25,420 nucleotides of DNA, taken from the NCBI GenBank assembly GCA_964519005.1, contig CAZFLO010000001.1:1-25420 (forward strand). Reading direction: 5' to 3'. Shown here in pieces: positions 1 through 25,420 of this stretch (positions within the stretch are counted from its first letter, which is position 1; each line of letters starts with the position of its first letter). Below the pieces are notes generated by a model, which saw only the letters and a program-made list of their open reading frames with translations, was not told the origin of the DNA and made no database searches. A program made the translations under genes and the position numbers. The stretch comes from Candidatus Woesearchaeota archaeon (lineage in GTDB: Archaea > Nanobdellota > Nanobdellia > Pacearchaeales > GW2011-AR1).

Positions 1-2
1 TT

Positions 3-509
3 CTAGAGGTTTTTAAGAAGTGCAAGAAGATAATTTAATTCTGTCCCAGAGCCTAAAAGATCTTTAGAATTTTCTCCATGAAACTGAAGTTTATCTGAAA
101 CCTGCTTTTTGTTTTTAAACTCCTCCATATCACCATGGGAATAAATCTTGAATTTTCTATCCTCAACTTGAGACATAAATTTTTCAAGAGTTATTTCTTT
201 TGGCAAATCTTTTGGCATTTTTTCGAATAATTTCATTAATGCTAAAGTTGCCCGAGTTAAAGCTTCATAATCTCTATGCTTTGATTGTGGCCAAATTCCT
301 GTTTTAGACGAATACCCATAATGTTCTTCACAGAATTTTGTTTTGTCCAATCTAAGAAGAGTAAAAAGCGCATCATTATTCATTCCCGAAGAAGAAGAAT
401 AAATATGATTGAAAAAAACTATAAACGAAAAAGATGCTAACAAAAGAATTTCATCCCCATATTGAAGTGTTTTTCCTTCAAGATCTATTGACTTTTTGTA
501 TGTTGCCAT
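3..509 (-). CDS. hypothetical protein (168 aa)
   Basis: Minus-strand ORF with stop TAG at 3-5. Started at ATG 507-509 (MATYKKSIDLEG...) because the 210-aa track version would read through the hairpin at 557-600. No domain recognised. Confidence 0.6.
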   Translation of the reverse strand: MATYKKSIDLEGKTLQYGDEILLLASFSFIVFFNHIYSSSSGMNNDALFTLLRLDKTKFCEEHYGYSSKTGIWPQSKHRDYEALTRATLALMKLFEKMPKDLPKEITLEKFMSQVEDRKFKIYSHGDMEEFKNKKQVSDKLQFHGENSKDLLGSGTELNYLLALLKNL

Positions 510-556
510 TTGTTTAAATTTTAAATTTGAAAATAATTTTGTTTTTTGTTTGAAAG

Positions 557-600
557 AAAAAAACCCTCCGCAACTGTGAATAAGCAGTGAGGGGTTTTTG
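557..600 (-). terminator. family-A hairpin (copy 1), putative intrinsic terminator fused to next-gene leader
   Basis: Plus strand: A7 CCCTC..ACTG loop CAGT.GAGGG T5. Minus sense: GC stem then a T7-8 tract. Lies between the stop of 622..828 and the ATG of 3..509. T/G box at 537-556. Confidence 0.6.
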
Positions 601-621
601 GTTAAGAATTTAAACTGTTTT

Positions 622-828
622 TTATCTGAATTCAAATAACATCAAAACCAAGCTTAAGGTAAAAAATGATCCCATAACAATTGAAAAAACTATTGAATAA
701 AAATAGCTATTCGATTCTTTTCTGGAACCCCCATTCGATTTTATTCTCTTGTACCTTCGAAAATTAACAAAGATTGAAATTATGGATAAAACAATTCCTA
801 CCACACAAATTATCTGAGAAATAATCAT
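622..828 (-). CDS. small membrane protein (68 aa, two predicted TM helices)
   Basis: ATG 826-828. Two hydrophobic stretches (IICVVGIVLSIISIFV and SIVFSIVMGSFFTLSLVLMLF) around a basic loop. Confidence 0.55.
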   Translation of the reverse strand: MIISQIICVVGIVLSIISIFVNFRRYKRIKSNGGSRKESNSYFYSIVFSIVMGSFFTLSLVLMLFEFR

Positions 829-850
829 CTTTTTAAATTTTAATTAATAA

Positions 851-868
851 TTTTGTTTTTTGTTTGAA
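851..868 (-). promoter_or_regulatory. T/G box (TTTTGTTTTTTGTTTGAA) without hairpin
   Basis: Same box as in family-A modules, 22 nt upstream (coding sense) of ATG 828 and abutting the stop of 871..1239. Confidence 0.4.
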
Positions 869-870
869 TT

Positions 871-1239
871 TTAGAACTCGACAATTATTATTTCGAAAGG
901 ACCTCTTCCATTTTGAAAAGGGTTCGAACCAAAACGATCAGCAAATATTTGGAACATTTTTTCGAATAACTTCTCGGAAAAATCCGGGTGAACTATTAAA
1001 AAAGATCCTCCTTTCTCTGGAAATTCAACCAAAACATCTGAAGAAATCAATTCTTCAACTATTTCATTAAAATCTCCGATCTTCATTTCTTCCGGGAGAT
1101 CCTTTGATAATTCTTCAAGTTCTTTTTTTGAAACAATCATCTTCTCAACAACTAGAATTAAAAAATTTGCTATTATTTCAGTTTTCTTGGTGAAGATAAA
1201 TTTGCTGGAATTTAAAACCTCTTTAATTACATTTTTCAT
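871..1239 (-). CDS. hypothetical protein (122 aa)
   Basis: ATG 1237-1239. Acidic, helical-looking, no domain recognised. Stop abuts the T/G box at 851-868. Confidence 0.55.
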   Translation of the reverse strand: MKNVIKEVLNSSKFIFTKKTEIIANFLILVVEKMIVSKKELEELSKDLPEEMKIGDFNEIVEELISSDVLVEFPEKGGSFLIVHPDFSEKLFEKMFQIFADRFGSNPFQNGRGPFEIIIVEF

Positions 1240-1287
1240 CTTGATAATTTAAATTTTAAATTTTAATTAATTTTTTTTTTTTGAAAG

Positions 1288-1330
1288 AAAAAAACCCTCC
1301 GCAACTGTGAATAAGTAGCGGGGGTTTTTG
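1288..1330 (-). terminator. family-A hairpin (copy 2)
   Basis: AAAAAAACCCTCCGC aactgtgaataagta GCGGGGGTTTTT. Downstream of 1380..1769 and upstream of 871..1239. Confidence 0.6.
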
Positions 1331-1379
1331 GATTTGAAATTTTAAAGTTATTTTCTAAAAGAGGATTTTAATTCAATTG

Positions 1380-1769
1380 TTAACCTGCGCCAGGAGGGTG
1401 GTGAGTCATTATAACTTCATCATATTGCCTTTTGAATTCGAAATAATTTTTCTCGAAAAACTCAAGGACTTTTGGAGGCGCTTTCTCAAATATTTCTTTC
1501 GCCTCTTTTTCAGAGATATGATACTTTGAATATGCTATATCGCTCGCATATTTTTTTATTCTTTTTTTCAACGCAGAAGGATATTTTTCAATCCAACTTT
1601 CCTCTGTTAATTTTGCTAGGTTCTTGATGTCAACAATCCCAATTATCTCTTCTTCAGATAACTCAATAGATCCCCAATCAATTTTGGATAACAATAACTC
1701 AAGCGCCTTTGTTCCATCAACATCTTTAACAAATCCCAACAAGGAATGAAATTTTTCTTTTATTTTCAT
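1380..1769 (-). CDS. hypothetical protein (129 aa)
   Basis: ATG 1767-1769 preceded by AAGAGGAG, one of the few Shine-Dalgarno-like leaders in the window. Monocistronic between hairpins 1288-1330 and 1810-1852. Confidence 0.65.
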   Translation of the reverse strand: MKIKEKFHSLLGFVKDVDGTKALELLLSKIDWGSIELSEEEIIGIVDIKNLAKLTEESWIEKYPSALKKRIKKYASDIAYSKYHISEKEAKEIFEKAPPKVLEFFEKNYFEFKRQYDEVIMTHHPPGAG

Positions 1770-1809
1770 TATTTCTCCTCTTTATGAATAATTTTTTTTT
1801 GTTTGAAAG

Positions 1810-1852
1810 AAAAAAACCCTCCGCAACTGTGAATAAGAAGCGGGGGTTTTTG
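1810..1852 (-). terminator. family-A hairpin (copy 3)
   Basis: Same stem as copy 2; the loop differs by one base (aactgtgaataagaa). Downstream of 1891..2430. Confidence 0.6.
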
Positions 1853-1890
1853 GTTATTTTGAAGAACTATTTATCCTAATACATCACATA

Positions 1891-2430
1891 TTACACCCAG
1901 ACATCTGGAAAAGGAGAAATAATCATTGCATTGTGTAAATCATCCTTTGGATAAAATTCTCGTAGCTCTCCCCCTCCAACATATCTTGGGCGCATTTGGG
2001 GATCTTCATCAAGAGAAATTATGATTTCACCAATTCCCAGTTTCATAGATTTCGCATTGACCTCTAAAGAAACAATCTCATTGCCATTTATCTTTGGTGT
2101 AAAATTGTCCCATTTTTGAGGAGGCATAAAATCTGAATGCAATGGTTTCTGAATATGATACTGATCAGGATGAGCACTTACCCATTGCCCGCCAACAGTC
2201 AACCAATCATATGAACTCCAAAGAGTTAAAATAAACCATTCTCCAGGATATTTTTCTGTATGCTTTAACTTAAGGCCAAAAAACCCAGGACCCCCTTGAC
2301 CATATGTGCCGCAATAGCCAGTACATTCAAGAATGAACCTTCCAATTATTCTTTCTTTGGGGGGGTTAAAAATTATTTCCTTTAATTGTTTTTTGTTTCT
2401 CAATTTTACAATTGCACTTGTTTTTTGCAT
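1891..2430 (-). CDS. hypothetical protein (179 aa), globular Trp/Gly/Pro-rich
   Basis: ATG 2428-2430. Sequence such as CTGYCGTYGQGGPGFFGL and WSSYDWLTVGGQW looks like a folded domain, but I cannot name the family. Confidence 0.65.
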   Translation of the reverse strand: MQKTSAIVKLRNKKQLKEIIFNPPKERIIGRFILECTGYCGTYGQGGPGFFGLKLKHTEKYPGEWFILTLWSSYDWLTVGGQWVSAHPDQYHIQKPLHSDFMPPQKWDNFTPKINGNEIVSLEVNAKSMKLGIGEIIISLDEDPQMRPRYVGGGELREFYPKDDLHNAMIISPFPDVWV

Positions 2431-2465: not shown

Positions 2466-2762
2466 TTATTTTCTTGCCATACTCAAATATGCTTGGAGAC
2501 CCCTGTTTTTGGTTCTCACATATTTTAGATATTTTTTTGTATTAGGCTCTTTTCCCATAATTACATAAACTCCCTCGATTAAATTTTTGTCAAGGAGTTC
2601 GTCTGTTACTCTTTTTGGAAAAGTTAAAGATCCTTTTTTCCCCCAATCCCGGATTTCTTCATAAACTCCAAAGGGTCCTTTATTTCCAATTTTGCGTAAT
2701 GCATTCTGACCTTCGCTACTAAGACCTCTTAAACCGATCTTTCCTTTTCTTCTTAAACGCAT
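2466..2762 (-). CDS. hypothetical basic protein (98 aa)
   Basis: ATG 2760-2762. Lys/Arg-rich. No domain recognised. Confidence 0.55.
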   Translation of the reverse strand: MRLRRKGKIGLRGLSSEGQNALRKIGNKGPFGVYEEIRDWGKKGSLTFPKRVTDELLDKNLIEGVYVIMGKEPNTKKYLKYVRTKNRGLQAYLSMARK

Positions 2763-2803: not shown

Positions 2804-4771
2804 TTAATCTTTTATGCATCGGACAGAAAATGTGACAGACCGATATGTGTCATATCTTCTTACTTGTTTGCTGAAGTCGTGCAAACTCCTACAATATGCG
2901 TCATCTCCACAAGGTGTAGATGTCCACCAATGACCATCTTCTGTAAGATTTTGGAAATAACCCCCGTTAACGTAAATACCTCCTCCAAGTGCATTAAAGC
3001 CCAGGGTGTTTGTTCCATTTCCATTCTCGAACCATCCCTCAGTAGATTTCATTTTTTCCCCTTCATCAGTACCGCGATAGCCATATTCATCAGCCTCACT
3101 TTGACTCATTCCAAAATACATTTCAAGGGTTTTCCATTCTTCGTCCGAAGGTAAATGCCAACCAGCGGGACAAGCTGTTAATGCTGCATCCCAATTGTAA
3201 AGCCTGCCATAGATATCTCCATTTGCAGAATTATTGTCATACCACCAAGAATAGGGAGAATCATAATTCAAGTTTTCTGCAAACCAGGTTTGAGAACCAA
3301 TTGTTATTGTGTTGTAAATTTGTCCATCTCGGGGATCTGTGAAAGTGTTTGCCCCGCCTCCAGAACTAACATGAATGTAATTTGATCTTGATAAAAAATC
3401 TTCTCCGGCTTCGTTTGCGACACCCAAAGTTATATTGTAATCTCCGGGAGAAGAATAAGCATGGGTTGGATTTTGAAGATTGGTATTGGTTGAACCGTCT
3501 CCGAAATTCCAATGCCAAAAATTCGGGTTATTTGATGAAAGATCTGTGAACTGGATAACTTCTCCCACTTCGACATTTGTAGAACTTGCAGTGAAATTTG
3601 CGACAGGAGGATTTATTGTTACTCCGAAACTTCCCGAGGCCAATTCATTCTCAAAATTAATAAAAGTTTTACTTTGGTCAACCCAGGTTCTGCTTAAAGC
3701 TTTGACTTTGACTTTGCCTAAGATATCTAAGCCTCCTTTCAAAGTCCAATAAGTTGTTTTGTTATATGCATTCAAATTTAAGTATGACCTTGCAGAAGCT
3801 GAAAGGCCTGCGACATCGTAGAGTAATAGGTTCAAATCAGTTCCGGCAAAGGCAGTCACATTTAAATTGTAATTCAAAATAGGATCTTCAAAATTGAATT
3901 GATTTGTTAATTCTGAAATTGTCCCCCATTTGGATTCTTCATATTTGATTCCTGCTTCTGCATGAAATTCATTTGAAACAGTTGACGTGTGGACGGAAAG
4001 GTTTCCATCTGTTCCCAAGATTACATCAAAAGAGGGCGTTACCCAAACAGGTAAGATTCCAATTGTTCCTAAGAGGACTGGAGAAAATTTGCATGTTGCG
4101 ACAACCTTATTTTCATTTATTGCTCCGGTTCCAAGAGTGGATTTCACGACCAGACTTGAATATTCATCTAGAATATTTTTGAAAACAAAATGTTTCATTT
4201 TCCACTTCTCGACTTCAAGTAGGATATCTATTTTATAATTAAATATAATAAAACCATCGATGATTACTTGGTCATCTGTTGTCCCGACATTTCCGTCACG
4301 ATCATAAATAACGTATTCATCGAAATCCCATCCAAATTCATAACTCTTTTCTGGTTTGAACAATTTGACTTTGGGTTCGGATTTGTGGCTAGATTTATCG
4401 CTATGCAAAAGCATTAAGCTAACGGACAAATAACCTTCTTCGGTCGCTTCTTCAATCGGACAACTAATTGTTTGGAGTGTTTTTTCATCACTTGAAACCG
4501 AAGTTATTTGCCTTAGAAAACCATTTGGAACTTTTTGAGTGATGATGGAATTGGTTAGAATATCTCCGACAGCATAATTTCCCGGAGCAGATAATGTTAT
4601 TTTTCCTGTGGTTCCGTCGTAAGAAGATATGTTTGTCATGTCTTGATTTGGCAGAACAAAAACTTCTCCCGTACCTGGAACGGAGGGATCTGGCGTTGTG
4701 GGATCATCCTTTTTGCAAGTTGTAAAGAGAATGATAAAAATAATTCCCAATAAATAAATTGCTTTTTTCAT
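2804..4771 (-). CDS. lipoprotein with PKD domain and Fibrobacter-succinogenes-major-paralogous (TIGR02145-like) C-terminal domain
   Basis: Started at ATG 4769-4771 (MKKAIYLLGIIFIILFTTC, lipobox Cys), which also removes the overlap with 4782..5198. PKD signature at about 3368-3613: FTASSTNVEVGEVIQFTD...WHWNFGDGS...NPTHAYSSPGDYNITL. TIGR02145-like signature at about 2807-3346: FTDPRDGQIYNTITIGSQTWFAENLNY...GRLYNWDAALTACPAGWHLPSDEEWKTLE...FSVRCIKD. Confidence 0.85.
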   Translation of the reverse strand: MKKAIYLLGIIFIILFTTCKKDDPTTPDPSVPGTGEVFVLPNQDMTNISSYDGTTGKITLSAPGNYAVGDILTNSIITQKVPNGFLRQITSVSSDEKTLQTISCPIEEATEEGYLSVSLMLLHSDKSSHKSEPKVKLFKPEKSYEFGWDFDEYVIYDRDGNVGTTDDQVIIDGFIIFNYKIDILLEVEKWKMKHFVFKNILDEYSSLVVKSTLGTGAINENKVVATCKFSPVLLGTIGILPVWVTPSFDVILGTDGNLSVHTSTVSNEFHAEAGIKYEESKWGTISELTNQFNFEDPILNYNLNVTAFAGTDLNLLLYDVAGLSASARSYLNLNAYNKTTYWTLKGGLDILGKVKVKALSRTWVDQSKTFINFENELASGSFGVTINPPVANFTASSTNVEVGEVIQFTDLSSNNPNFWHWNFGDGSTNTNLQNPTHAYSSPGDYNITLGVANEAGEDFLSRSNYIHVSSGGGANTFTDPRDGQIYNTITIGSQTWFAENLNYDSPYSWWYDNNSANGDIYGRLYNWDAALTACPAGWHLPSDEEWKTLEMYFGMSQSEADEYGYRGTDEGEKMKSTEGWFENGNGTNTLGFNALGGGIYVNGGYFQNLTEDGHWWTSTPCGDDAYCRSLHDFSKQVRRYDTYRSVTFSVRCIKD

Positions 4772-4781
4772 TTTTAAAAAG

Positions 4782-5198
4782 TTAGTTACTAGTTTTTGTT
4801 TTGTGTTCATATTTCCTAATCTCAAAATCCATGTTAAACATGAAACGAATATTCTTGATTATTTCTATCTCTAAGGGCAAAATGTCTTCAAGAGAACATC
4901 GGTCTGCAATGTAATCTGCACAAGTTTCACCATACTTCCCCGATTGGTTATTTTCAGACCGATAAAAAAAGAAGAATGTTCTCTTAAAAATTATAAACTT
5001 TCCGGACAATAATGGAAAAGAATGAGATTTATACTTTACAAAAACTTGATATTTTACGTGAATCCTTGAAGAAGAATTTTCCTCTTCAAAACTATGAACT
5101 TCAATAAAAAAATCATTCTCTTTTGAAATGCTTGGATTTAGATCCGTAATTAGATCAATCAGTTTTTGCCTTATTGGTATTCGAAATGTTTCATCCAT
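4782..5198 (-). CDS. hypothetical protein (138 aa)
   Basis: ATG 5196-5198, directly downstream (coding sense) of hairpin module 5221-5300. No domain recognised. Confidence 0.55.
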   Translation of the reverse strand: MDETFRIPIRQKLIDLITDLNPSISKENDFFIEVHSFEEENSSSRIHVKYQVFVKYKSHSFPLLSGKFIIFKRTFFFFYRSENNQSGKYGETCADYIADRCSLEDILPLEIEIIKNIRFMFNMDFEIRKYEHKTKTSN

Positions 5199-5241
5199 CG
5201 TGATTTAAAAATTTAGTTAATAATTTTTGTTTTGTTTGAAG

Positions 5242-5281
5242 AAAAAAAACCTCCGCAAGAAAAAGGATGCGGGGGTTCTTT
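5242..5281 (-). terminator. family-A hairpin (copy 4)
   Basis: A8 CCTCCGCA agaaaaagga TGCGGGGG TTCTTT. Part of the 64-nt block identical to 5738-5801. Confidence 0.6.
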
Positions 5282-5306
5282 GAAATTGTTTGATCGATTG
5301 TTTTGT

Positions 5307-5717
5307 TTAATCGGAAATCTCGTAAATCTCAGCATATTTTTTAATTAACAAATCAATCACCTCCTGATCATAATAATATTCGTTCCCTAATGCGAAATTT
5401 ATAAACCAGTCCGGTAAATCCAAAAGGGTTACTTCATTTATGAGCTGTTGCACTTTTTCGAAAAATTTTGTTTTTATATCCAGAACTATTTTTACACGAG
5501 TTTTTGCTGTGATGAACGCTTCATGAATTATTTCGAAATTATTGCAAACAGCCAGATCTTTTTCAAAATCTTTGCTCCCAAAATATGCCCTAAGTTCTTC
5601 AGGTATGTTTGTCTGTATTTTATGATGTGAAAATTCCTGCAATCTTTTTATACACCTACTCTCCCTATTTTTTGCCATTAAGTCTTCTGGCGAGATTCCC
5701 AAAATTGTTTTTCCCAT
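5307..5717 (-). CDS. hypothetical protein (136 aa)
   Basis: ATG 5715-5717. Single gene bracketed by two identical 64-nt modules (5221-5284, 5738-5801). No domain recognised. Confidence 0.6.
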   Translation of the reverse strand: MGKTILGISPEDLMAKNRESRCIKRLQEFSHHKIQTNIPEELRAYFGSKDFEKDLAVCNNFEIIHEAFITAKTRVKIVLDIKTKFFEKVQQLINEVTLLDLPDWFINFALGNEYYYDQEVIDLLIKKYAEIYEISD

Positions 5718-5758
5718 TGTGATTAAATTTTAATGATTAATTTTTGTTTTGTTTGAAG

Positions 5759-5798
5759 AAAAAAAACCTCCGCAAGAAAAAGGATGCGGGGGTTCTTT
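5759..5798 (-). terminator. family-A hairpin (copy 5)
   Basis: Identical to copy 4. Confidence 0.6.
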
Positions 5799-5871
5799 GA
5801 ACTAGAATTTTTCTTTGAAATAATCTGGGTCCAACTAATCAACCAAGTGGTCTCTTGTTGGTACAAAGATA

Positions 5872-6393
5872 CTATTTTTTAATTAATGATTGAAGTGTAG
5901 GCTCGCTTGAAGAAGATTTATTCTTCTTAGCTTTAATAATTTTGTATTCAGCAACAGCAGTATATTTTCCTGCATTGGAATAAACTGTAACTGTCATTCT
6001 CACGTCAACATCCGTTTCTCCGGTGTTTAAGACCTGCGCTGATTGGCTATATACAATTTGCGTTTCATTGGTGCCAATTGTACTATTTGAATTTTGTAAA
6101 TCCACTTCAGCACTTTCTCCCTGTGCCCATCCACTAATAAATTCCTCTTTTGCATGGATTCTGGTTATCTCAGCCTCTCCACCTGAATTAGAGACCTTGA
6201 TTTCCCAGTGAATTGAACTACCGCTTTTGACGGATGTTGGAGTTATACTATTCTCAACCTTAAGGGGGCCTGGAACGGAGGGGCCTTCTTTTTCGTCTTT
6301 TTTACAGCTATCACTCAAACAGGCAAAGAATCCAAATATGATGGCTATTGCAAAGAATTTGAATTTTGTTGAAATAAAAATTGAATTTTTCAT
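5872..6393 (-). CDS. putative lipoprotein (173 aa), beta-rich
   Basis: ATG 6391-6393. N-terminus FFAIAIIFGFFACLSDSCKKDE (signal plus Cys), then PSVPGP linker and a Ser/Thr/Val-rich beta-looking domain. Confidence 0.65.
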   Translation of the reverse strand: MKNSIFISTKFKFFAIAIIFGFFACLSDSCKKDEKEGPSVPGPLKVENSITPTSVKSGSSIHWEIKVSNSGGEAEITRIHAKEEFISGWAQGESAEVDLQNSNSTIGTNETQIVYSQSAQVLNTGETDVDVRMTVTVYSNAGKYTAVAEYKIIKAKKNKSSSSEPTLQSLIKK

Positions 6394-6598: not shown

Positions 6599-7372
6599 TT
6601 AATCGGAATCTCTCATTGTTACTTCATCTTGAAATGTCTCTAATCCGGGAGAAATGTGATGGTCACTCATTAACGGACAATGAGGATCTGAAAAATTAAT
6701 TTCTCCATCATCGTTCACATCCCAATAAAGAGTTATATTCGGATAATCTCCTTCATGAACATGGGCACTTACATATTCCGAGGTAATTCCGAATAAATTC
6801 CTTAAGGAATTAAAACATCGCTCATCTGAAACCACGGCCCCATATGAATCTTGTATCACCATTCGGAGGTGGTGTTGTCCTGAAACTGATCCGACATATT
6901 TGACATTCCCGCTGAACCAACCTAAATCCGAAGGGCTTGTTCTATCAACTACATTTATGTCAAAAGATTCAGTCTCAAAACCCTCAACTTCAAAAGATTT
7001 CTGAACAATTATTTGCTCATTTGAATTTTCAAATCCGGATTCATCCCAATCCCAATAGCCCCCTAATTCATATGTTCCTGCTTCAAGTTTAGATGGAGTT
7101 TTAATTTTCCATCCTCCAGATAACATTCCGGGGTTTGCACTTTTTGTGAAATTGCTATACTGTGAACCTTCATGATAAATTGTAAAATGGAATTGGTGTT
7201 CTCTCCCCAATTCAGTTTTTGCAGTCCCAGAATAAAATAAATTGAATTCGACAAACTGTGCAGTTGGTTCTTCTTCCCCAAAAGGAGTTCCATTGGGCGT
7301 AGTCGTCTCTTTTTCACAAGCTACAAAACTGAAAAGGAAAATAATTCCTAATAAATAAATTGTTTTTTTCAT
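6599..7372 (-). CDS. putative lipoprotein (257 aa)
   Basis: ATG 7370-7372. MKKTIYLLGIIFLFSFVACEKE lipobox. The first 35 nt are near-identical to the start of 2804..4771. Confidence 0.7.
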   Translation of the reverse strand: MKKTIYLLGIIFLFSFVACEKETTTPNGTPFGEEEPTAQFVEFNLFYSGTAKTELGREHQFHFTIYHEGSQYSNFTKSANPGMLSGGWKIKTPSKLEAGTYELGGYWDWDESGFENSNEQIIVQKSFEVEGFETESFDINVVDRTSPSDLGWFSGNVKYVGSVSGQHHLRMVIQDSYGAVVSDERCFNSLRNLFGITSEYVSAHVHEGDYPNITLYWDVNDDGEINFSDPHCPLMSDHHISPGLETFQDEVTMRDSD

Positions 7373-7417
7373 TGAAATTAAATTTTAATAATTAATACTT
7401 TGTTTTTTGTTTTAAAG

Positions 7418-7461
7418 AAAAAAAACCCTTCACATCCGCAAAGAAGAAAAGGGTTTTTTTC
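7418..7461 (-). terminator. family-A hairpin (copy 6, weak-stem variant)
   Basis: A8 CCCTT cacatccgcaaagaagaa AAGGG T7. Short GC core extended by A/T pairing. Downstream of 7473..8420. Confidence 0.45.
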
Positions 7462-7472
7462 TTTTTGTTGTT

Positions 7473-8420: not shown

Positions 8421-8462
8421 TGTTTAAAAATTTAAAATTAATAATTTGTTTTTTGTTTTAAA

Positions 8463-8503
8463 GAAAAAAACCCTTCGCATCCGCAAAGAGGAAAAGGGTT
8501 TCT
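8463..8503 (-). terminator. family-A hairpin (copy 7, weak-stem variant)
   Basis: A7 CCCTT cgcatccgcaaagaggaa AAGGG TTTCTT, followed by the AATTGTTTGATCGATT extension. Downstream of 8538..8876. Confidence 0.45.
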
Positions 8504-8537
8504 TGAAATTGTTTGATCGATTTTTTTTAGAAACCTT

Positions 8538-8876: not shown

Positions 8877-8911
8877 CTTGTTATTTTTTAATGAAGTTGT
8901 TAATTTGTTTT
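8871..8911 (-). repeat. 41-nt exact repeat spanning a start codon (copy 1)
   Basis: TTTCATCTTGTTATTTTTTAATGAAGTTGTTAATTTGTTTT is identical at 10311-10351. Includes the ATG AAA of 8538..8876. Here it also encodes the C-terminus of 8881..9222. Confidence 0.85.
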
Positions 8912-10651: not shown

Positions 10652-10687
10652 CTTTTTAAATTAATAATTTGTTTTTTGTTTGAAAGG

Positions 10688-10731: not shown

Positions 10732-10736
10732 AATTG

Positions 10737-19342: not shown

Positions 19343-19624
19343 TTAAGAAAAGAGCCAAGCCATATTAACTCCAGGAATTAATTTTGTTGAATGGATGTAT
19401 ATTGAACTTGTTTCCTCTCCTTCTTTTTTTGTGAAATCTTTTATTTTTTCAAGAAGATCTTTGATGAGCTCCGGAGAAGTTAATTTGTGAAACGCTGCCA
19501 CGCATACTTTGGGATGGAACTCAGCCATTTCCAAAACACACCAAATGCTTTCATCTTTCTTTAAATCCATTAACCGACCCAAAAAGAAATTTAATTCTTT
19601 GATTGAAATTTGATTTTTTTTCAT
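19343..19624 (-). CDS. hypothetical protein (93 aa)
   Basis: ATG 19622-19624, one nt after the stop of 19626..19817. No domain recognised. Confidence 0.5.
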   Translation of the reverse strand: MKKNQISIKELNFFLGRLMDLKKDESIWCVLEMAEFHPKVCVAAFHKLTSPELIKDLLEKIKDFTKKEGEETSSIYIHSTKLIPGVNMAWLFS

Positions 19625-19625: not shown

Positions 19626-19817
19626 CTACTTGTTTTTTCTTTGTTTTTTTATTATCCAAAAAATTATTATTAAAATTATTAGTCCTCCACGAAAGAAGAG
19701 ATCGTTTTCAGTCCACCAATCTAAGTAATCTGCCACGGCTCCAGTCTCGGGAATTATGAAAGTTACCAAGAATATGGAAACGAGAATTAAAATTAAACGC
19801 TCTTTTATCCAGTTCAT
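19626..19817 (-). CDS. small membrane protein (63 aa, two TM helices)
   Basis: ATG 19815-19817. LILILVSIFLVTFIIP and GGLIILIIIFWII, followed by a basic tail. Confidence 0.5.
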   Translation of the reverse strand: MNWIKERLILILVSIFLVTFIIPETGAVADYLDWWTENDLFFRGGLIILIIIFWIIKKQRKNK

Positions 19818-19838: not shown

Positions 19839-20213
19839 TTATAAATTTTTCCAGATATCGAAGAAGGGATCGTAGACACCATAACCTCCTTCTTCAGACA
19901 TGTCTGCTCTTGCCATATCTTCTAAGATATCTGTATCTAAGGGGAAATCTTCGAGAGAATCATTTAACTCCCTGGTTTGCAATTCCCAGTAATCCTCAAT
20001 ATATTGCTTTTCTTCTGGAGAAATTTGTGGAGGAGGCTCGCTTGTTGGGAATTCAAGGAGAGCGCCGAATTGGGAATTTGCCAGAACTTCTTCTGCCCAT
20101 TCAGATGAAGTTTTTATTGGTTTTTCAAAGTTATCCAAGAGAGAGGGGAAAAGGGGAAGATTGCTTTCAGTTACAACTATGTTTTGTCTTTTTTCAAATT
20201 TTCTTTTTGCCAT
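19839..20213 (-). CDS. strongly acidic protein (124 aa)
   Basis: ATG 20211-20213. Asp/Glu/Pro-rich with aromatic residues. Preferred over the Arg/Leu-rich antisense ORF 19832..20290. Confidence 0.6.
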   Translation of the reverse strand: MAKRKFEKRQNIVVTESNLPLFPSLLDNFEKPIKTSSEWAEEVLANSQFGALLEFPTSEPPPQISPEEKQYIEDYWELQTRELNDSLEDFPLDTDILEDMARADMSEEGGYGVYDPFFDIWKNL

Positions 20214-20243: not shown

Positions 20244-20360
20244 TTAAAATAAATGAGGGAATCTCCAAAGAAGCCAAACAATTGCTATAAAAATGCAAAT
20301 GCAAATGGCTCCAAAATTTTCTCTAGAAATTCTGCTTTTTTTAAAATTGAACTTTTTCAT
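20244..20360 (-). CDS. possible micro-membrane protein (38 aa)
   Basis: Not in the ORF track (below size cut-off). ATG 20358-20360, TAA 20244-20246. Reads MKKFNFKKSRISRENFGAICICIFIAIVWLLWRFPHLF and fills an otherwise empty 160-nt gap. Confidence 0.25.
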   Translation of the reverse strand: MKKFNFKKSRISRENFGAICICIFIAIVWLLWRFPHLF

Positions 20361-20377: not shown

Positions 20378-20623
20378 TTATTTGTTTAAGTATATGAGCT
20401 CTCGGAGCTCTTTTATCCTTTGATCCATTAAAGAAATTATGGCTTCTTCAAACTCCGAAGACAATATCTTAACAACTAATTTTGCTCGTTCAATTTCTTC
20501 GATGTCTTTAACTTCTAAGAGTTCATTTCCAAGACGTTTTATATTTTTCACGACTAAGAGATGATCTCTTATTATCGTAGCATTTACCAAAGAATTGGCT
20601 GTTTCTACTAAATTTATTCTCAT
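20378..20623 (-). CDS. small helical protein (81 aa), paralogue of 22803..23030
   Basis: ATG 20621-20623. Shares the pattern D(I/L)EE(I/L)ER..(L/F)V...I.S.....L(M/I)...IK(E/D)L with 22803..23030. Confidence 0.55.
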   Translation of the reverse strand: MRINLVETANSLVNATIIRDHLLVVKNIKRLGNELLEVKDIEEIERAKLVVKILSSEFEEAIISLMDQRIKELRELIYLNK

Positions 20624-20654: not shown

Positions 20655-21110
20655 TTAATTGCAAATTAAATATATTCCGCCAAATAGAATGATTGCTTGA
20701 AAAAATGAAATTATCAAAATTTCTTTCCTTCTAATCGTTGATTCATTAAATATTTCCGAGAGGTATTTGAAAAATGCTACACTAAAGACCGCTGCTCCAC
20801 CCACTTGTGAAATGCTGATAATGCCCTCCATCAAGTCTGTTTTTCCTTCTGTAAAATCAAAAAGAGACATGGCTGTTATGCAAACCATTGTATTTGTAGT
20901 TAAAGCCCAAATATTTTTTGAAATTGGAATTAGAGAAAAAGTCATTGAAAGGGCTCCGATAAAAAGAGATAAAGAAAGATACAAATTCATTTTCTCTAGG
21001 ACAAGAAAGTTGGAAACAAATTGAGAACAAAGAAAATAAATTCCAAGAACAATACCGGTCAGAATTAATTCTGGGATTGCTTTTTTAAAATTTGAAATAG
21101 GAAAGTTCAT
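20655..21110 (-). CDS. membrane protein (151 aa, four to five TM helices)
   Basis: ATG 21108-21110. Hydrophobic throughout. Confidence 0.6.
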   Translation of the reverse strand: MNFPISNFKKAIPELILTGIVLGIYFLCSQFVSNFLVLEKMNLYLSLSLFIGALSMTFSLIPISKNIWALTTNTMVCITAMSLFDFTEGKTDLMEGIISISQVGGAAVFSVAFFKYLSEIFNESTIRRKEILIISFFQAIILFGGIYLICN

Positions 21111-21130: not shown

Positions 21131-21295
21131 TTAATTTTTTATACAGGAAATAACTCTTAGAACCAGCCAATATCCGAAGAAGATTATTAAAATTATTAAT
21201 GATATTGCGAAACCGATCAGACAGGTGACTGTTAGTAGGATTGCAAGACTCACCCAAAATAAAATTATCCAAAGAATGTTCAGAAAAATTTTCAT
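21131..21295 (-). CDS. possible small membrane protein (54 aa)
   Basis: Not in the ORF track. ATG 21293-21295, TAA 21131-21133. Reads MKIFLNILWIILFWVSLAILLTVTCLIGFAISLIILIIFFGYWLVLRVISCIKN and fills the gap between two membrane-protein genes. Confidence 0.35.
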   Translation of the reverse strand: MKIFLNILWIILFWVSLAILLTVTCLIGFAISLIILIIFFGYWLVLRVISCIKN

Positions 21296-21305: not shown

Positions 21306-21728
21306 TTATAATGAACTTATTGTGAAAGCCAATCCGAAAGCCAAAACCAGGAATTGAATGAGTAACTGTTTCTCACAACTTTGAAGAAGAGTTTTCTTAA
21401 CAATAAGAGAGAGCATTAACATTAATTTAAACAAAATTAGACAACAAAGAACTATTGCAACTGAATAGAAATCTGAAATTACTTCTGAAAAAATCAGTAT
21501 TTGGGCTAAGCATGTTAAACTTAGTACCAATAAAATAATTCCTTTTTTGTAATCAAAAAAGAATGAAATGATAAAAAGAATAACTCCTAAAACAAAGGAG
21601 AAAAGAGTTAATGCTTCGGTTGTATCTACATCTTCGTAATCAAACAAGAAAATTGAGACAATGAAAAAAGCATATCCTATGCAGAAAATTGCAGAATAAA
21701 TGATTTGTTCTTTTATGAAATCTTTCAT
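21306..21728 (-). CDS. membrane protein (140 aa, four to five TM helices)
   Basis: ATG 21726-21728. Hydrophobic throughout. Confidence 0.6.
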   Translation of the reverse strand: MKDFIKEQIIYSAIFCIGYAFFIVSIFLFDYEDVDTTEALTLFSFVLGVILFIISFFFDYKKGIILLVLSLTCLAQILIFSEVISDFYSVAIVLCCLILFKLMLMLSLIVKKTLLQSCEKQLLIQFLVLAFGLAFTISSL

Positions 21729-21819: not shown

Positions 21820-22733
21820 CTAAAGTTTTATGTATGCTCCAATATAAATATTGAGACCAATATCCAATGGTTTGAGGATATTGTAACCTATCCCGTATAA
21901 ACCTTCGATGGCGAGATCTTTGTTCCAAGGTTGTTTGAATTTTTTTATAATTATAAATTCGAAATAATCCTCTTGGATCTTGTCCCAAGGTTCTGGATCT
22001 GAGACATCAATTACGTCCAGCGCTAACTCGAACCATCCTCGAACATTATACTGAACATATTGAGACATCAAGTTCTGGTTCATATTGCAAACCCACTTTA
22101 ACTCATCTTTCACTTCTGTTCCGATAATCATCCCTACCTCTCTGTCGTTTACATATATTGCTGCACTCATACAATCAAAGAAAGTTGCCTTGAGAGCATA
22201 CTCTGTCGAATCTCCGAGATAATTTCCTCGCTCGGCAACTCCCATTTCTACCTTTAAGTTCTTGAAATTATACCCGGTTTTTAATGCAACTTTATTTCCC
22301 CCGAGTGTTGCTTGTGAAGCTAAATATTCAAATTGAGCATCAAAGGAAACGGGATATGTCCGATACATAGTTACTGGTGAAGCCGGATTTCCTATTTGTG
22401 CCCAGAATCCTTTTCCGTTTTTATTTTTGTATTCTAAATATGCTTGAAAAAAGGACTTGAACTTTTGTCAGTCACAAACTTATTTGCAGCGTTTACATTC
22501 AAGATAAAATGTGAGCCGAAGTAAGTTTTCGTGCTTACTCCAAACAAGAGATTGCTTGACTTTTGAAAATCCAGTTCGCGGAAATTTGGATTGATTGTGT
22601 TTGCGATTCCGGCATAAGGTACTGCTTCTATTCTTTGTGCTTTTGAATCTTTTGGGGAAATAAGTAATAATATGATGATTAAAAGTATGAGCAGGATTGG
22701 TAACCAATAATTCTTTCTTTGTTCGTTTTCCAT
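21820..22733 (-). pseudogene. outer-membrane beta-barrel-like protein, frame broken at a T6 run (304 aa if joined by a -1 shift)
   Basis: ORF 22434..22733 has a signal-like N-terminus ending SKAQ and strand-like sequence. The frame of ORF 21820..22368 is open upstream to 22467. The two frames overlap at coding-strand CCT TTT TTC (plus 22446-22454). One extra T or a -1 slip gives ...SSSPFFQAYLEYKNKNGKGFWAQIGNP... continuously. Confidence 0.55.
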
Positions 22734-22802: not shown

Positions 22803-23030
22803 CTATTTCTGGAGATCTTTTATTTTGGATTCGATTAAATCAAGTACCTTCTCTCTCGTGGAGTCAGAGATAATTGACTCAGCAACAAACCTTGTTCTTT
22901 CAAGTTCTTCCAAATCTGTTTCTTTTGAAAGTCCTAAAAGAAAATTTTCAAAAGATTCTACCCTCAAATCTACATTTTGAGTATGGGAGGAGTTCATGAC
23001 ATACATGCATAATTCTGACAGGCTTTCCAT
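22803..23030 (-). CDS. small helical protein (75 aa), paralogue of 20378..20623
   Basis: ATG 23028-23030. Gapless alignment to 20378..20623 shows conserved DLEELER..FV...IIS and LIESKIKDL. Confidence 0.55.
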   Translation of the reverse strand: MESLSELCMYVMNSSHTQNVDLRVESFENFLLGLSKETDLEELERTRFVAESIISDSTREKVLDLIESKIKDLQK

Positions 23031-23067
23031 GTTAGTTAATTTTTGATGATTAAATTTGATTAATTTT

Positions 23068-23544
23068 TTATTTACTCAAAACATCCTGGTATTCGGAGAG
23101 TTTAAACCCGTATCCGGATTTATACGGAAAATCATCTTCTTGAACTTCTCTGAAGAAAAAGAAAGTTGAGATTCCTACTCTGATAACCAAATATTTCTCC
23201 CCTTTTTCGTTTACGATTGCATAGGGAATTCCTTGGATCTTTAACCTGTTTCCGAATTCTATGGAAAGTGATTTATCTGAAGGAATATTTTCCGGCGTTG
23301 TTAGTTCTACTAAAGAACCCTCAATTGAATCGAAGGAATTCAGGATGTCTTTGTATGAATTAGAAATCGCAAAGATTTCATAAGTATAAATGTCTGGGAA
23401 ATTGAATCCTCTCTCTAATTGGTTAAGAACGGTAAGGAGGTGTTCTTTTCCATACTCCTCTGTAAAAAAATCAAATGAAACAATTGTTTTGTCTTTTAGG
23501 GGATTTAAAAAATCCTTCAAAGACATTTCTTTTAAATTTATCAT
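23068..23544 (-). CDS. hypothetical protein (158 aa)
   Basis: ATG 23542-23544. First gene after module 23579-23643. No domain confidently recognised; a faint SUKH/SMI1-like N-terminal pattern (LNQLERGFNFPDIY) is only a guess. Confidence 0.6.
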   Translation of the reverse strand: MINLKEMSLKDFLNPLKDKTIVSFDFFTEEYGKEHLLTVLNQLERGFNFPDIYTYEIFAISNSYKDILNSFDSIEGSLVELTTPENIPSDKSLSIEFGNRLKIQGIPYAIVNEKGEKYLVIRVGISTFFFFREVQEDDFPYKSGYGFKLSEYQDVLSK

Positions 23545-23578
23545 GTTATTAGAATTTAATTAATAATTTGTTTATTTG

Positions 23579-23643
23579 AAAAAAGAAAAAATTCCGGTTT
23601 GTTTAATTTTCTCTCTACCGGAAAAAGAGATCAGGGTATTACT
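23579..23643 (-). terminator. family-B stop-plus-terminator module (copy 2)
   Basis: Same sequence block. Its TAA (23639-23641) is the stop codon of the LysM gene. The T tract follows the CCGGT/ACCGG stem. Confidence 0.45.
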
Positions 23644-24430
23644 CGATTATTAATTTCTGTCCGACCAAGATTAAATCGGATTTAAGACCATTCAGCTTTT
23701 TCAAAGAAGCTATACTAATTCCATAAAGTATGGAAATGGATGTTAAGGTTTCTTTTTTCACAACCAAATGGATTCTTTCTTCTGCCGTTGCTATTCCTTT
23801 TGGTTTGATTACCTTCTTTTTTGAAGGAATATATTTTTCCAAAACATAAAAATCATTGACATTTTTGAAGGTGATTTTCAAGGTTTCAAGATTGAGAATA
23901 TCAACTATATCATCATCCAAAGGAGTTATGAGGACATATTCACCATATTCACCATATTTGAAAAATAAATATGTTTTACCATCAATATCCATCATGGTGG
24001 GAGGATCATAAGAATAATCTCCATGTTCTGTCTCTATTGTCCACCTCCCTTTTTTTACCCTTCCCTTTGTTGCTTTCAAACCAGCAGGAGTGAATCGATC
24101 TACATGGGCCCCATATTTGTTCAAAAAAGGAACTGCAATAAAATACCCTCCCTCCACAGTAATGTTGCGTTCACCGGTTTCAAGAATCCTTTCAATACGA
24201 AGATCTTTAAAACGGGCAACTTGGAAAGGCAAAGAACTCGCTCCCTCGTTTGGCATAAAATACCTTGCCGAATCGAACAGATTGGTGACATTATAAATTA
24301 GCGGGCCCGATTTAAACTTTTTGGAAGTGAAAGAAATATCGGTAATGTTGTTTTTTGCATGGTGTTTTCTTTGTCCTATTGCACCAACAGAAATAAGCAC
24401 CATTAATAAAACTAAAATTAAATTTTTCAT
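23639..24430 (-). CDS. secreted protein with C-terminal LysM domain (263 aa)
   Basis: Signal peptide MKNLILVLLMVLISVGAIGQ. The C-terminus HLVVKKETLTSISILYGISIASLKKLNGLKSDLILVGQKLII matches the LysM consensus (TV..GDTL..IA..YG......N.L....L.VGQ.L.I). Confidence 0.8.
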   Translation of the reverse strand: MKNLILVLLMVLISVGAIGQRKHHAKNNITDISFTSKKFKSGPLIYNVTNLFDSARYFMPNEGASSLPFQVARFKDLRIERILETGERNITVEGGYFIAVPFLNKYGAHVDRFTPAGLKATKGRVKKGRWTIETEHGDYSYDPPTMMDIDGKTYLFFKYGEYGEYVLITPLDDDIVDILNLETLKITFKNVNDFYVLEKYIPSKKKVIKPKGIATAEERIHLVVKKETLTSISILYGISIASLKKLNGLKSDLILVGQKLIIE

Positions 24431-24493
24431 AAGAATTGTTTTTTAAATTTAGAAAATTTGTTTATTGGAAATTTGTTTATTTATTTGTTTTAA

Positions 24494-25051
24494 CTAAAAC
24501 TTTGCTCCTACTGTTAAGTTGAATCCATGGAATTTGTCTCCGGCAATTTGCAATGTGTGTTCTCCTTCAAGATATATTCTTACGGGACCATAAGGCAATA
24601 AAGTCACTCCTGCCCTTAATGGGATGTTCCAGGAATTGAAATCGTTTCCTTCGTAAGAACAATCCTCCTTTTGATTCCACATATTATGCTCGGTTGTTCT
24701 GAACATTATTCCAGTTCCAAAATATCCTATTCTCTTGCCGGAAAAATTTGGATAAAAGTTGACCATGTATCCCAAATCGAAAACCGTTTGGTTTGAGAGT
24801 TCTGAATCTCCCACATTGTGGTTTAGATATGCCCCGGCAAATGCACCATGTTCGAGGAAGTATTCTTTGAATCCTGCTTCGACTTTGAAACCTCCAAAGG
24901 TTACTGAAGGGTAATTTCCACAATCTGTTTTTAGGATTGTGAGACTTGGGCCAACTTTTCCGTAGAACTCTTGAGCTTGGGTATTTGGGCAACAGGCAAC
25001 TGCGAAAACTGCGATTAAAACTGCGATTAAAATTTTGATTGAATTTTTCAT
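24494..25051 (-). CDS. small outer-membrane beta-barrel-like protein (185 aa)
   Basis: Signal peptide ending NTQAQ. Alternating strand pattern with Gly/aromatic girdles. Ends LTVGAKF (C-terminal Phe). Confidence 0.7.
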   Translation of the reverse strand: MKNSIKILIAVLIAVFAVACCPNTQAQEFYGKVGPSLTILKTDCGNYPSVTFGGFKVEAGFKEYFLEHGAFAGAYLNHNVGDSELSNQTVFDLGYMVNFYPNFSGKRIGYFGTGIMFRTTEHNMWNQKEDCSYEGNDFNSWNIPLRAGVTLLPYGPVRIYLEGEHTLQIAGDKFHGFNLTVGAKF

Positions 25052-25133
25052 ACTTTTAAAATTTAAGATTTAGAAATTTGATTATTTTTTGATGTTAATT
25101 TGTGAATAACTTTGTTTGTTTATGGAAATTTGT

Positions 25134-25420
25134 TTATTTGCTGCTGGAACAAATCACAAACCACTCAGCATCGTCCTTCTTTTTTTGATAGATGGAAATC
25201 CCTGCTGCGGTACCCACCCTACTTTCTGCTTTTTGATAGATTGAGATTCCTACTCCGAGAGTTGCATCCTTTTCTGCTTTTTGATAAATTGGAATTCCCC
25301 AGCCAGTGATGGCATTACTTTCTGCTTTTTGATAACTTAGAACTGCCACTATTGTGAATGCATCTCCTTCTGCTTTTTGATAGGTTGAAATCCCTAAACC
25401 AATAGTTGCACCATTTCCTG
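25134..25420 (-). CDS. 16-aa tandem-repeat protein, C-terminal part only (5' end beyond window)
   Basis: The frame is open to the window edge. It reads ...GLGISTYQKAEGDAFT IAVLSYQKAESNAITG WGIPIYQKAEKDATLG VGISIYQKAESRVGTA AGISIYQKKKDDAEWFVICSSSK. The track start at 25349 is just an internal Met. Confidence 0.6.
   Translation of the reverse strand, partial: GNGATIGLGISTYQKAEGDAFTIVAVLSYQKAESNAITGWGIPIYQKAEKDATLGVGISIYQKAESRVGTAAGISIYQKKKDDAEWFVICSSSK
25178..25420 (-). repeat. 48-bp tandem repeat (at least five units, continues past window edge)
   Basis: The anchor CTGCTTTTTGATA recurs at 25226, 25274, 25322 and 25370, with a degenerate first unit at about 25178. Period is exactly 48 nt (16 codons) and encodes the YQKAE repeats. 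Confidence 0.85.

Follow-up and report, generated by a model that had tools for sequence, protein, structure and literature searches.

For DPANN archaea, bacterial protein families and DPANN-specific hypothetical families that may be related to symbiosis were described, and it was asked whether some DPANN have bacterial hosts (PMC8204110). The DNA considered here is a stretch of 25,420 nucleotides (contig CAZFLO010000001.1 of GenBank assembly GCA_964519005.1, positions 1 to 25,420), referred to as the window at its full length, and its subject is an array of small genes that are all encoded on the minus strand. Among described systems, the array fits best with the hypothetical-rich and partly bacterial-like gene complements of DPANN (PMC8204110). 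With the regions of hypothetical proteins and the hypervariable surface-protein regions of genome-reduced symbionts (DPANN archaea and bacteria of the candidate phyla radiation, CPR) it has in common the context of a small genome of low guanine-cytosine (GC) content, long co-directional gene runs, mostly lineage-specific small proteins of which many are exported or membrane-bound, and bacterial-type proteins in an archaeal genome. It differs from such regions in that 45 or more genes form one contiguous block, that a terminator/leader module of its own recurs throughout, and that neighbouring housekeeping genes do not have its leader signature. We tentatively read the window as the interior of a fast-changing chromosomal accessory island of a DPANN archaeon, which would encode an exported interaction repertoire, and give this reading a probability of about 0.45. 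The array is probably distinctive in combining an OMP-type barrel with signal peptidase II-type (SPII-type) lipoproteins in a probable archaeon, a combination for which no literature was found; likewise, no mention of an OMP-type beta-barrel in Woesearchaeota was found in the literature.

Chromosomal integron arrays resemble the window in their uniform orientation, small and diverse genes, repeated intergenic elements and many ORFans. However, the window is devoid of IntI, attI and attC architecture, has its own promoter-like leaders and terminators, likely belongs to an archaeal host and shows no strain-level shuffling. The recombinase-associated arrays of Bacteroidales (rAID), reportedly described by Ross et al. 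in 2019 as a means of interbacterial defence, are similar to the window in co-oriented small genes, conserved intergenic sequence, many periplasm-targeted proteins or lipoproteins, an ankyrin protein and Bacteroidales domain affinities, whereas the window has no recombinase at either visible end, no Pfam immunity family, and no syntenic counterpart other than an archaeal chromosome. Phage early or hyperplastic regions also consist of packed, co-oriented small ORFans behind a reiterated AT-rich motif, and one family of the window, that of G33, also occurs in jumbo phages. Unlike such regions, the 27.6 kb that could be read hold no hallmark or PHROG family besides LysM and have no similarity to phage records, and the related locus adjoins ribosomal protein genes with nearly equal GC content.

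This related locus provides the link to archaea. Among 79 genome loci with a relative of the FISUMP domain of G42, only L046, from a metagenome-assembled genome (MAG) named 'Candidatus Woesearchaeota archaeon', has neighbours in common with the window, and homologues of G30 (37% identity), full-length G42 (39%) and G43 (67%) are found there with order and strand conserved. A separately deposited JGI contig, L101, is 100% identical to L046 over 6555 nt. It carries 17 co-oriented genes without Pfam match, followed after 280 nt by a convergent housekeeping cluster with RpoD (E=6e-49), archaeal S11, S4 and S13, RpoF, L21e, RpoN and SecD; GC content is 29.3% in the array and 29.5% in the housekeeping part. 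At the junction no repeat common to other loci and, where visible, no integrase or tRNA was found, and no recombinase was detected in 20 kb of L101. In total, G27 (fused to G28 in L101), G31, G30, G42 and G43 are common to L101 and the window. The ten window genes between G31 and G42 are missing in L101, which has its own, unrelated Pfam-less genes instead.

Further contigs of this kind were identified. L197/L198 (11.5 kb) carries 24 co-oriented small genes, including relatives of G33 (46%, tblastn) and of G48 (34% identity over 93 aa), with Rhomboid as the only Pfam match, and in another 15-kb co-oriented contig, which contains a 42% identical relative of G29, a LysM protein is the only Pfam match. 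Together with L101, these contigs indicate that this kind of array recurs, with a thin common backbone and heavy turnover. The DNA of the window recurs in many metagenome contigs of ENA, JGI and Logan. The 24 overlapping contigs from the source-lake metagenomes, which represent more than 10 samples, are all colinear with the window at 99.99-100% identity; thus, the source population is clonal and shows no strain-level cassette shuffling.

Taken together, the host is probably a DPANN archaeon, because of the synteny with L046 and L101, because an insertion sequence (IS) at the left edge of the window is also found beside Trm5b-like and HerA-like genes, and because the Bacteroidota -7 motif is not enriched (TAnnTTTG occurs twice in the spacers vs 1.3 expected). 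For this particular window, an archaeal host would follow from these comparisons of sequence.

The anatomy of the window is uniform. Open reading frames (ORFs) of at least 80 aa take up 85% of the length of the minus strand and 16% of that of the plus strand, the minus strand has 32 ORFs that reach 100 aa vs 4 on the plus strand, and the GC content is about 0.33 along the whole length, without a compositional break. Gene calling with ATG starts in the extended sequence gave 48 same-strand ORFs, about 45 of them credible. ORFs at 5213-5335, 5723-5866 and 13910-14026 were rejected as genes; they sit on repeated intergenic modules. Packing is close, with overlaps of 4 nt (16500-16503) and 29 nt (4782-4810) and gaps of 1 nt (19625) and 4 nt (8877-8880), and Shine-Dalgarno-like (SD-like) leaders precede only 1380..1769 (AAGAGGAG) and 14884..15453 (AAGGAG), apart from two weaker ones. 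By hydropathy and lipobox count, 23 of the 48 products of the extended array have transmembrane (TM), signal or lipobox features, namely 10 multi-TM proteins, about 10 with a signal peptide or lipoprotein signature and 3 with a single TM segment. Domains recognised by Pfam or NCBIfam were LysM, thioredoxin, weak ankyrin, OMP_b-brl_2, and PKD with FISUMP/TIGR02145, and nothing else. Neither a tRNA or tmRNA nor an Rfam family was detected in the window, and paralogy or duplicated cassettes are almost absent from the array.

An initial annotation, made from the letters of the window alone, had described about 44 minus-strand genes with short spacers, overlaps and rare SD leaders, about half of them with envelope-type products, and both descriptions agree with the counts above. 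Of the generic modules it named, PKD, TIGR02145-like, LysM, thioredoxin and weak ankyrin were recovered by profile, whereas the zinc ribbon is a visual call only (CxxC...CxxC in 16240-16503). Its view of the genes as ORFans applies to most of them, but not to G33, which belongs to a very large family, nor to G44, which has relatives at 43-61% identity. Reusable intergenic signals, which it had named as a mark of such arrays, were found as spacer repeat families of 5-10 copies each and as a 23-nt leader consensus with 5 occurrences vs 0 expected, on the minus strand every time.

Alignment of the spacers reveals a module of the form AAAAACCC[CCGC-loop-GCGG]AGGG-TTTTTTT-C-TTT-CAAACAAAAAAC-AAATTATTAATT-AAAATTTAAA-(2-8 nt)-ATG. 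In a custom hairpin scan that allowed loops of up to 15 nt, the coding strand was found to have 9-10 GC hairpins with a T-run, vs 0.2 expected from shuffles; every one of them lies between genes, at a distance of 19-79 nt past a stop codon. A generic sigma-70 promoter scan and a generic terminator scan of the sequence remained at chance level. When the genes are aligned at their ATG, G is nearly missing from positions -45..-1, and A is found at -3 in 83%, at -6 in 71% and at -11..-13 in 80-83% of the genes. For about two thirds of the genes a run of A and T only overlaps -30..-20, but the best-conserved box is often found at -24..-15. In L101, the array genes (404-11389) have 87% A at -11..-13 and 3.7% G in their leaders, vs 21% A at -11 and 12.7% G for the housekeeping genes (11669-19806), which have canonical TATA boxes at about -29..-22.

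Two module copies of 77 nt (5208-5284 and 5725-5801), 95% identical, flank the gene at 5307-5717 (family D16), and an 81-nt direct repeat (13920-14000 and 14490-14570), 96% identical, lies in two consecutive spacers. For the latter, neither a significant fold (z=-0.95) nor an Rfam match was obtained, and it probably arose by recent duplication of a spacer. When tested for attC likeness (an imperfect inverted repeat with RYYYAAC / GTTRRRY cores), the module proved to be a GC stem of 7-8 bp followed by a T-run and a conserved A-rich leader, with no R''/L''-L'/R' architecture, and its 3' side GGGTTTTTTT (GTTTTTT) does not fit the attC core GTTRRRY. Genes equipped in this way with promoter/leader and terminator-like modules do not qualify as promoterless cassettes; by their sequence features, the modules would act as promoters and terminators.

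Every assembly ends 48-90 nt past the left edge of the window because the IS sits there. Positions 1..53 are the right end of an approximately 1.28-kb IS5-like element, 100% identical to L012 1256-1308, and include its terminal inverted repeat TTCTGTCCCAGAGCC (39-53) and, on the plus strand, the last 12 codons of a 53-aa ORF (P0001), up to the stop at 36-38. A 9-bp target-site duplication, TAAAAGATC, follows at 54..62, and the identical 9-mer abuts the other end of the element in L012 and L021. The full copy (L012 32-1309) has 15-bp terminal inverted repeats (GGCTCTGGGACAGAA / TTCTGTCCCAGAGCC) and encodes a 330-aa DDE-like ORF and the divergent 53-aa ORF (MVYIRKKIVKGKRYYYLVEGK...). Copies that are 99.8-100% identical were found in at least four different flanks, with three matched 9-bp target duplications. 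The inverted repeats, the duplications, the occurrence at at least four sites and the DDE-like ORF identify it as an insertion sequence. To which family of DDE insertion sequences it belongs can be said only tentatively, since the 330-aa ORF matches the IS5-family transposase profile NF033579 only weakly (E=3e-7, 30 bits vs a curated cutoff of 140). The 15-bp inverted repeats, the 9-bp duplication, the multiple near-identical copies and the 330-aa DDE-like ORF resemble the IS5 family, whereas the score far below the cutoff and the extra divergent 53-aa ORF do not. A 9-bp duplication is longer than is typical for IS5. Assemblies were seen to chimerise across near-identical IS copies in the community.

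When the window from position 54 onwards is joined to the flank of L021, G48 is restored to at least 220 aa and is still open. What looks like a change of strand at the left edge is thus due to the IS only, and the array continues beyond it. Other IS copies have as neighbours a gene for a tRNA methyltransferase that is Trm5b-like (E=6.5e-34) and one for a HerA-like ATPase, in DNA with 32-33% GC, the same as in the window. On the right, contig L001 extends the window by 2.0 kb, with three further genes on the same strand; beyond them, 2.1 kb past the edge, a divergent gene begins, of which 43 codons are included; no relatives were detected for its visible 43-residue start. The initial annotation was thus right in viewing the window as the interior of a longer array, with three more genes to the right and a leftmost gene that extends past the IS. 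Its proposal of an organising gene beyond the right edge found no support in the divergent gene, of which 43 uninformative residues are visible. The idea of a circular element, in which the left and right flank fragments would form one gene, was rejected, as the left fragment is the 53-aa ORF of the IS. Another IS copy (L013 840-1193) interrupts a gene for a signal-peptide protein (..SNLHAQE) in the same community, and bacterial-style exported proteins therefore occur beyond this array.

Most of the array proteins that were searched have few relatives. Ten tested window proteins, all of which are also encoded on one NCBI contig of 47,547 nt, are singletons at 90% clustering, and G43 (98 aa) is found in three clusters among 5.8 billion. 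In HMMER searches against 1.84 billion representatives, G19 and G09 retrieved only themselves among 150 matches listed, G29 had one relative among the matches listed and G44 several (43-61% identity). For G04, no relative was found in viral, genome (185,579 species genomes) or metagenome collections, and an exact G04 30-mer is absent from IMG/VR.

G33 is the exception. Its family accounts for most of 1255 representative matches, with 171 matches at E<1e-30 and more than 1000 clusters, and is conserved in C, C, H and C and in the motif [IV]GWR[KR]RV[IM]. Profile searches against PDB, Pfam and PHROGs gave no match. An AlphaFold2 (AF2) model of G33 has a predicted local distance difference test (pLDDT) score of 92, and Foldseek searches with this model against PDB and BFVD returned nothing significant; a tblastn search of plasmids found nothing. 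The C-terminal approximately 100 aa of G33 are met again in jumbo phages and in IMG/VR, there in over 80 contigs, and none of the viral contigs with G33 relatives shares any other array gene. G33 thus stands for a sizeable uncharacterised protein family that is worth describing.

The backbone gene G42 is composite. Its FISUMP domain is 55-66% identical to sequences from Bacteroidales, Lentimicrobiaceae and Draconibacterium MAGs, and its N-terminal 400 aa show the opposite pattern and are closer to the archaeal orthologue, which suggests either domain-level exchange or very uneven rates.

As a chromosomal island, the locus would comprise at least 27.6 kb and at least 45 genes in a low-GC, small-genome Woesearchaeota-like host from metagenomes of the Antarctic-lake type. 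It may be organised as a string of independent small transcription units, neither as one operon nor as recombinase-driven cassettes. Most genes stand behind an AT-rich box and a nearly G-free, A-rich leader with A at -3, -6 and -11 to -13, a GC hairpin with T-run before about ten genes would terminate the upstream unit, and the terminator/leader modules of about 80 nt are homologous to each other. About half of the products are predicted to be exported, lipid-anchored or membrane-embedded, and those that are recognisable look like binding or envelope modules. With these products, exported or at its surface, an episymbiotic cell might interact with the partner cell that it touches, and a role of the island in cell surface or host interaction would be in line with them. 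The island may evolve by gene gain and loss, by copying of intergenic modules and by IS activity, and the FISUMP domain and the OMP barrel may have been acquired horizontally from Bacteroidales-like bacteria. If the host is indeed archaeal, the array offers a compact candidate set of about 45 genes with common expression signals, roughly half of them exported, for contact between episymbiont and partner.

Several observations weigh against this island in an archaeal genome. The link of the window to archaea is indirect and runs via protein identities of 37-67% to L101 and via the common IS. The genes look bacterial, with SPII-type lipoboxes and an OMP_b-brl_2 barrel ending in Phe, and the FISUMP domain (window 2807-3346) is 66% identical to Bacteroidales (L022) vs 54% to the archaeal orthologue (L046). 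A at -3, -6 and -12/-13 is the initiation pattern described for Flavobacterium johnsoniae (PMC6847099), and the window leaders reproduce it. The AT-rich box lies 15-31 nt from the ATG, whereas a canonical archaeal TATA box of leaderless mRNAs (about -26) would call for a distance that varies less and is often longer. In L101 only array genes have the leader signature, and the housekeeping genes of the same contig lack it, which would also fit a foreign element. Finally, the interaction role is drawn only from export signals and binding domains, and about half of the products are predicted to be cytoplasmic.

The bacterial envelope-type genes make the question of bacterial hosts for DPANN, as raised in PMC8204110, directly testable here. 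It is conceivable, if rather improbable, that a Woesearchaeota-like DPANN archaeon maintains a dedicated and separately signalled island for proteins in the style of a bacterial envelope (OMP-type beta-barrels with a C-terminal beta-signal, SPII-type lipoproteins, LysM, and a FISUMP domain obtained from Bacteroidales, all behind Bacteroidia-like initiation leaders), and that these are exported to target the envelope of a bacterial, Bacteroidales-like partner or to become part of it. If true, the locus would show at the genome level that a DPANN archaeon can have a bacterial host, and would supply the set of genes for the contact.

Other explanations place the array outside the archaeal chromosome or give it a different origin. 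The leader motif that marks the array genes of L101 and not the adjoining housekeeping genes, the strict co-orientation, the tight packing of mostly ORFan genes behind a conserved AT-rich motif, the occurrence of the G33 family, especially of its C-terminal domain, in the IMG/VR contigs and jumbo phages, and three other 11-15-kb contigs that consist of such genes only would all suit the early or accessory region of a DPANN virus, provirus or large extrachromosomal element, integrated or chromosome-adjacent in L101, with the element's own promoter motif before every small gene. Such an element is nevertheless unlikely, as hallmark genes are absent from the 27.6 kb, PHROGs matched array products of the LysM type only, and a megablast comparison of the window with 50,697 phage records gave 0 matches. 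In addition, five of six proteins tried (G04, G43, G44, G29 and G30) have no IMG/VR relatives, viral contigs bearing G33 have no other array gene, the array of L101 has chromosomal GC content and a visible junction without integrase or tRNA, and the IS that interrupts the array also adjoins cellular genes. A bacterial chromosome was the choice of the initial annotation, which had deduced a Bacteroidota-like host from signal-peptide style, lipoboxes and SD-less A-rich leaders. These cues are real, and the ..AQE signal-peptide ends, the barrel with its terminal Phe, the best FISUMP matches to Bacteroidales, Lentimicrobiaceae and Draconibacterium MAGs, the Flavobacterium-like A at -3, -6 and -11..-13 and the hairpin-plus-T-run terminators can be added to them. 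The deduction is probably wrong, however, as the synteny is archaeal: none of about 70 Bacteroidota loci has a neighbouring gene in common with the window, in contrast to the archaeal contig. An ordinary accessory region of a Bacteroidales-like chromosome would make the archaeal linkage a mis-assembly or a reverse transfer, and we regard this as quite unlikely, since the L101/L046 junction is identical in two separately deposited assemblies and holds no repeat that could cause a chimera. Furthermore, G04 is without relative in the species genomes searched, the IS copies lie beside Trm5b-like genes, an archaeal/eukaryotic enzyme type, the -7 promoter motif is not enriched in intergenic DNA, and the GC content of 33% matches that of the IS-linked archaeal-type contigs.

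A true mobile cassette array, integron-like or rAID-like, in which an outside recombinase acts at the repeated intergenic elements, is very improbable. Diverse unrelated small genes in one orientation, repeated modules of about 80 nt at unit boundaries, gene content that differs strongly between related loci, and partly visible flanks with a divergent gene 2.1 kb to the right would be expected of it. However, no recombinase or integrase family was found in the 48 products or the flanking ORFs by Pfam, PHROGs or NCBIfam, with flanks that are readable for about 2.3 kb past the right edge and 0.2 kb past the IS, and a recombinase might lie farther away; the 20 kb of L101 have none either. Families of immunity proteins (Imm, SUKH/SMI1, Tsi and Tdi) were not detected among all products by Pfam at E<0.01, apart from the weak ankyrin. 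The units have their own expression signals, the repeats are without attC architecture and GTTTTTT misfits GTTRRRY, paralogues and duplicated cassettes are nearly missing, and the 24 contigs from many samples show no rearrangement. The initial annotation had seen an array of integron, immunity or phage early type and had named a tyrosine recombinase, type VI secretion system (T6SS) or polymorphic-toxin genes and phage hallmarks as signs of it. The 27.6 kb that could be read yielded none of these genes, and neither an Imm/SUKH family nor an attC-like site, which does not favour any of the three types. The cassette-level variability it had expected is seen between related loci, which differ strongly in content, but not among the 24 source-lake contigs. 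Co-oriented ORFan arrays with reiterated intergenic elements can thus arise without an integron or a phage, and the array can serve as a negative control for cassette scans.

The genes are numbered from G48 at the left edge to G03 at the right edge, and they and the intergenic modules lie on the minus strand. G48 (3..509, also readable as 3..635) is the gene interrupted by the IS, and its last 17 codons and stop are IS sequence. A terminator-like hairpin (564-591) with T-run and conserved leader precedes it (510..621), followed by G47 (622..828; 68 aa, 2 TM segments) and G46 (871..1239; 122 aa, soluble, without family). The module before G46 (1240..1379) has its hairpin at 1296-1324, and that before G45 (1770..1890) at 1818-1846, both with T-run and leader; G45 itself (1380..1769) is a soluble protein of 129 aa with an SD-like leader. 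G44 (1891..2430; 179 aa, soluble) belongs to the uncharacterised family mentioned above with relatives at 43-61% identity, and the backbone gene G43 (2466..2762; basic) is the one with 67% identity to its L101/L046 homologue. G42 (2804..4810), also of the backbone, is predicted to be a 668-aa lipoprotein with PKD and FISUMP (Fib_succ_major) domains (Pfam 1.2e-35 and 2.7e-15; TIGR02145 1.8e-46).

Soluble or lipoprotein-like products follow. G41 (4782..5198; 138 aa, soluble) has a module at 5199..5306 with hairpin (5250-5275), T-run and leader, on which a spurious 40-aa ORF lies, and G39 (5307..5717; 136 aa, soluble) has a corresponding module at 5718..5871 (hairpin 5767-5792, T-run and leader) with a spurious 47-aa ORF. 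G38 (5872..6393; 173 aa) is lipoprotein-like, and so is G37 (6599..7372; 257 aa), whose signal peptide resembles that of G42 and which is preceded by a module with hairpin (7426-7453), T-run and leader at 7373..7472. G36 (7473..8420; 315 aa) has a signal peptide (..SLFAQE), an OMP_b-brl_2 domain (PF13568, E=2.7e-14) and the C-terminus ..GFLF. The domain scores 54 bits, vs a Pfam gathering cutoff of 27, and covers 167 of 175 profile positions. By profile score, signal peptide and C-terminal aromatic residue, G36 is predicted to be an outer-membrane beta-barrel of the OMP_b-brl_2 type. Its module (8421..8537) again has a hairpin (8471-8490), T-run and leader.

G35 (8538..8876; 112 aa, soluble) starts at 8876 and not at 8948, and G34 (8881..9222; 113 aa) is soluble as well. 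In G33 (9240..10316; 358 aa), the conserved residues of its very large uncharacterised family are C122, C125, H240 and C243, and the motif reads IGWRKRV. G32 (10364..10651; 95 aa, 3 TM segments) is preceded at 10652..10736 by a hairpin, T-run and leader module with an exact match to the leader consensus (10660-10682). G31 (10737..11186; 149 aa, soluble) has a weak L101 homologue, and the backbone gene G30 (11217..11924) appears to be a 235-aa lipoprotein with 37% identity to its L101/L046 homologue and with a module of hairpin (11997-12021), T-run and leader at 11925..12042. G29 (12043..12825; 260 aa) is soluble and is the gene with the 42% identical relative in the other 15-kb co-oriented contig. 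Ankyrin repeats in G28 (13116..13394; 92 aa), which is fused with the G27 homologue in L101, are weak (Pfam Ank_2 E=2e-4, below cutoff), and the backbone gene G27 (13414..13878; 154 aa, soluble) is 37% identical to that homologue.

Copy 1 of the 81-nt intergenic repeat (13920..14000), which gave rise to a spurious 38-aa ORF and is 96% identical to copy 2 (14490..14570), lies on one side of G26 (14007..14453; 148 aa, 4 TM segments), and copy 2 lies on the other. G25 (14575..14820; 81 aa) is basic and soluble. A similar short hairpin stands before one gene in each locus, CATGGCTGTGAGCGCATG in the window (14821-14883) and CATCGCTGTGAGCGGATG in L101 (2760-2818), and may be a conserved RNA or DNA element. 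Then come G24 (14884..15453; 189 aa, 2 TM segments with a helical tail), which has an SD-like leader, G23 (15541..15750; 69 aa, 2 TM segments), G22 (15779..16126; 115 aa, soluble) and G21 (16240..16503; 87 aa), which combines CxxC..CxxC with a C-terminal TM segment and has the 4-nt overlap with G20. G20 (16500..16904) is predicted to be a 134-aa lipoprotein with a thioredoxin domain (Pfam E=1.7e-12), and G19 (16962..17624; 220 aa) is acidic and soluble.

Beyond G18 (17663..19303; 546 aa), with 5 TM segments and a C-terminal domain, the products are mostly small. They comprise G17 (19343..19624; 93 aa, soluble), G16 (19626..19817; 63 aa, 2 TM segments), G15 (19839..20213; 124 aa, acidic and soluble), a doubtful 38-aa ORF, G14 (20244..20360), that is uncalled in L109, and G13 (20378..20623; 81 aa, helical), a weak paralogue of G07 (22803..23030; 75 aa, helical). 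G12 (20655..21110; 151 aa) has 4 TM segments, G11 (21131..21295; 54 aa) has 2, G10 (21306..21728; 140 aa) has 6 hydrophobic segments, and G09 (21820..22368; 182 aa) is without TM segment. G08 (22434..22733; 99 aa) starts with an N-terminal signal or anchor (..KAQ), and G06 (23068..23544; 158 aa) is soluble. G05 (23639..24430; 263 aa) has a signal or anchor and a C-terminal LysM domain (Pfam E=3.5e-10) and is the sole PHROG-matching gene type; a 254-aa LysM "variant" in L003/L006 was discarded, as it differs only in the start call and its DNA is identical.

G04 (24494..25051; 185 aa) has a signal peptide (..NTQAQE), ends in ..VGAKF and is without family, and its AF2 single-sequence model (pLDDT 35) was unusable. 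At the right edge, 25134..25420 encodes the C-terminus of G03, whose start lies outside the window. This membrane-anchored protein of 217 aa is made of about eight diverged 16-aa repeats (YQKAE..; ..SYQKAEGDAFTIVAA..), which a 48-nt tandem repeat (family D8) encodes, and the gene runs approximately 370 nt past the window (L001 1662-2315).

The exact 546-aa product of G18 is absent from records, although the products of its neighbours are present. Several assemblies break inside the gene; independent assemblies repeatedly begin or stop in G18 and at about 20,830, which hints at microheterogeneity in this region. A single nucleotide polymorphism relative to the ENA contig was also noticed, somewhere in 4884-20813.

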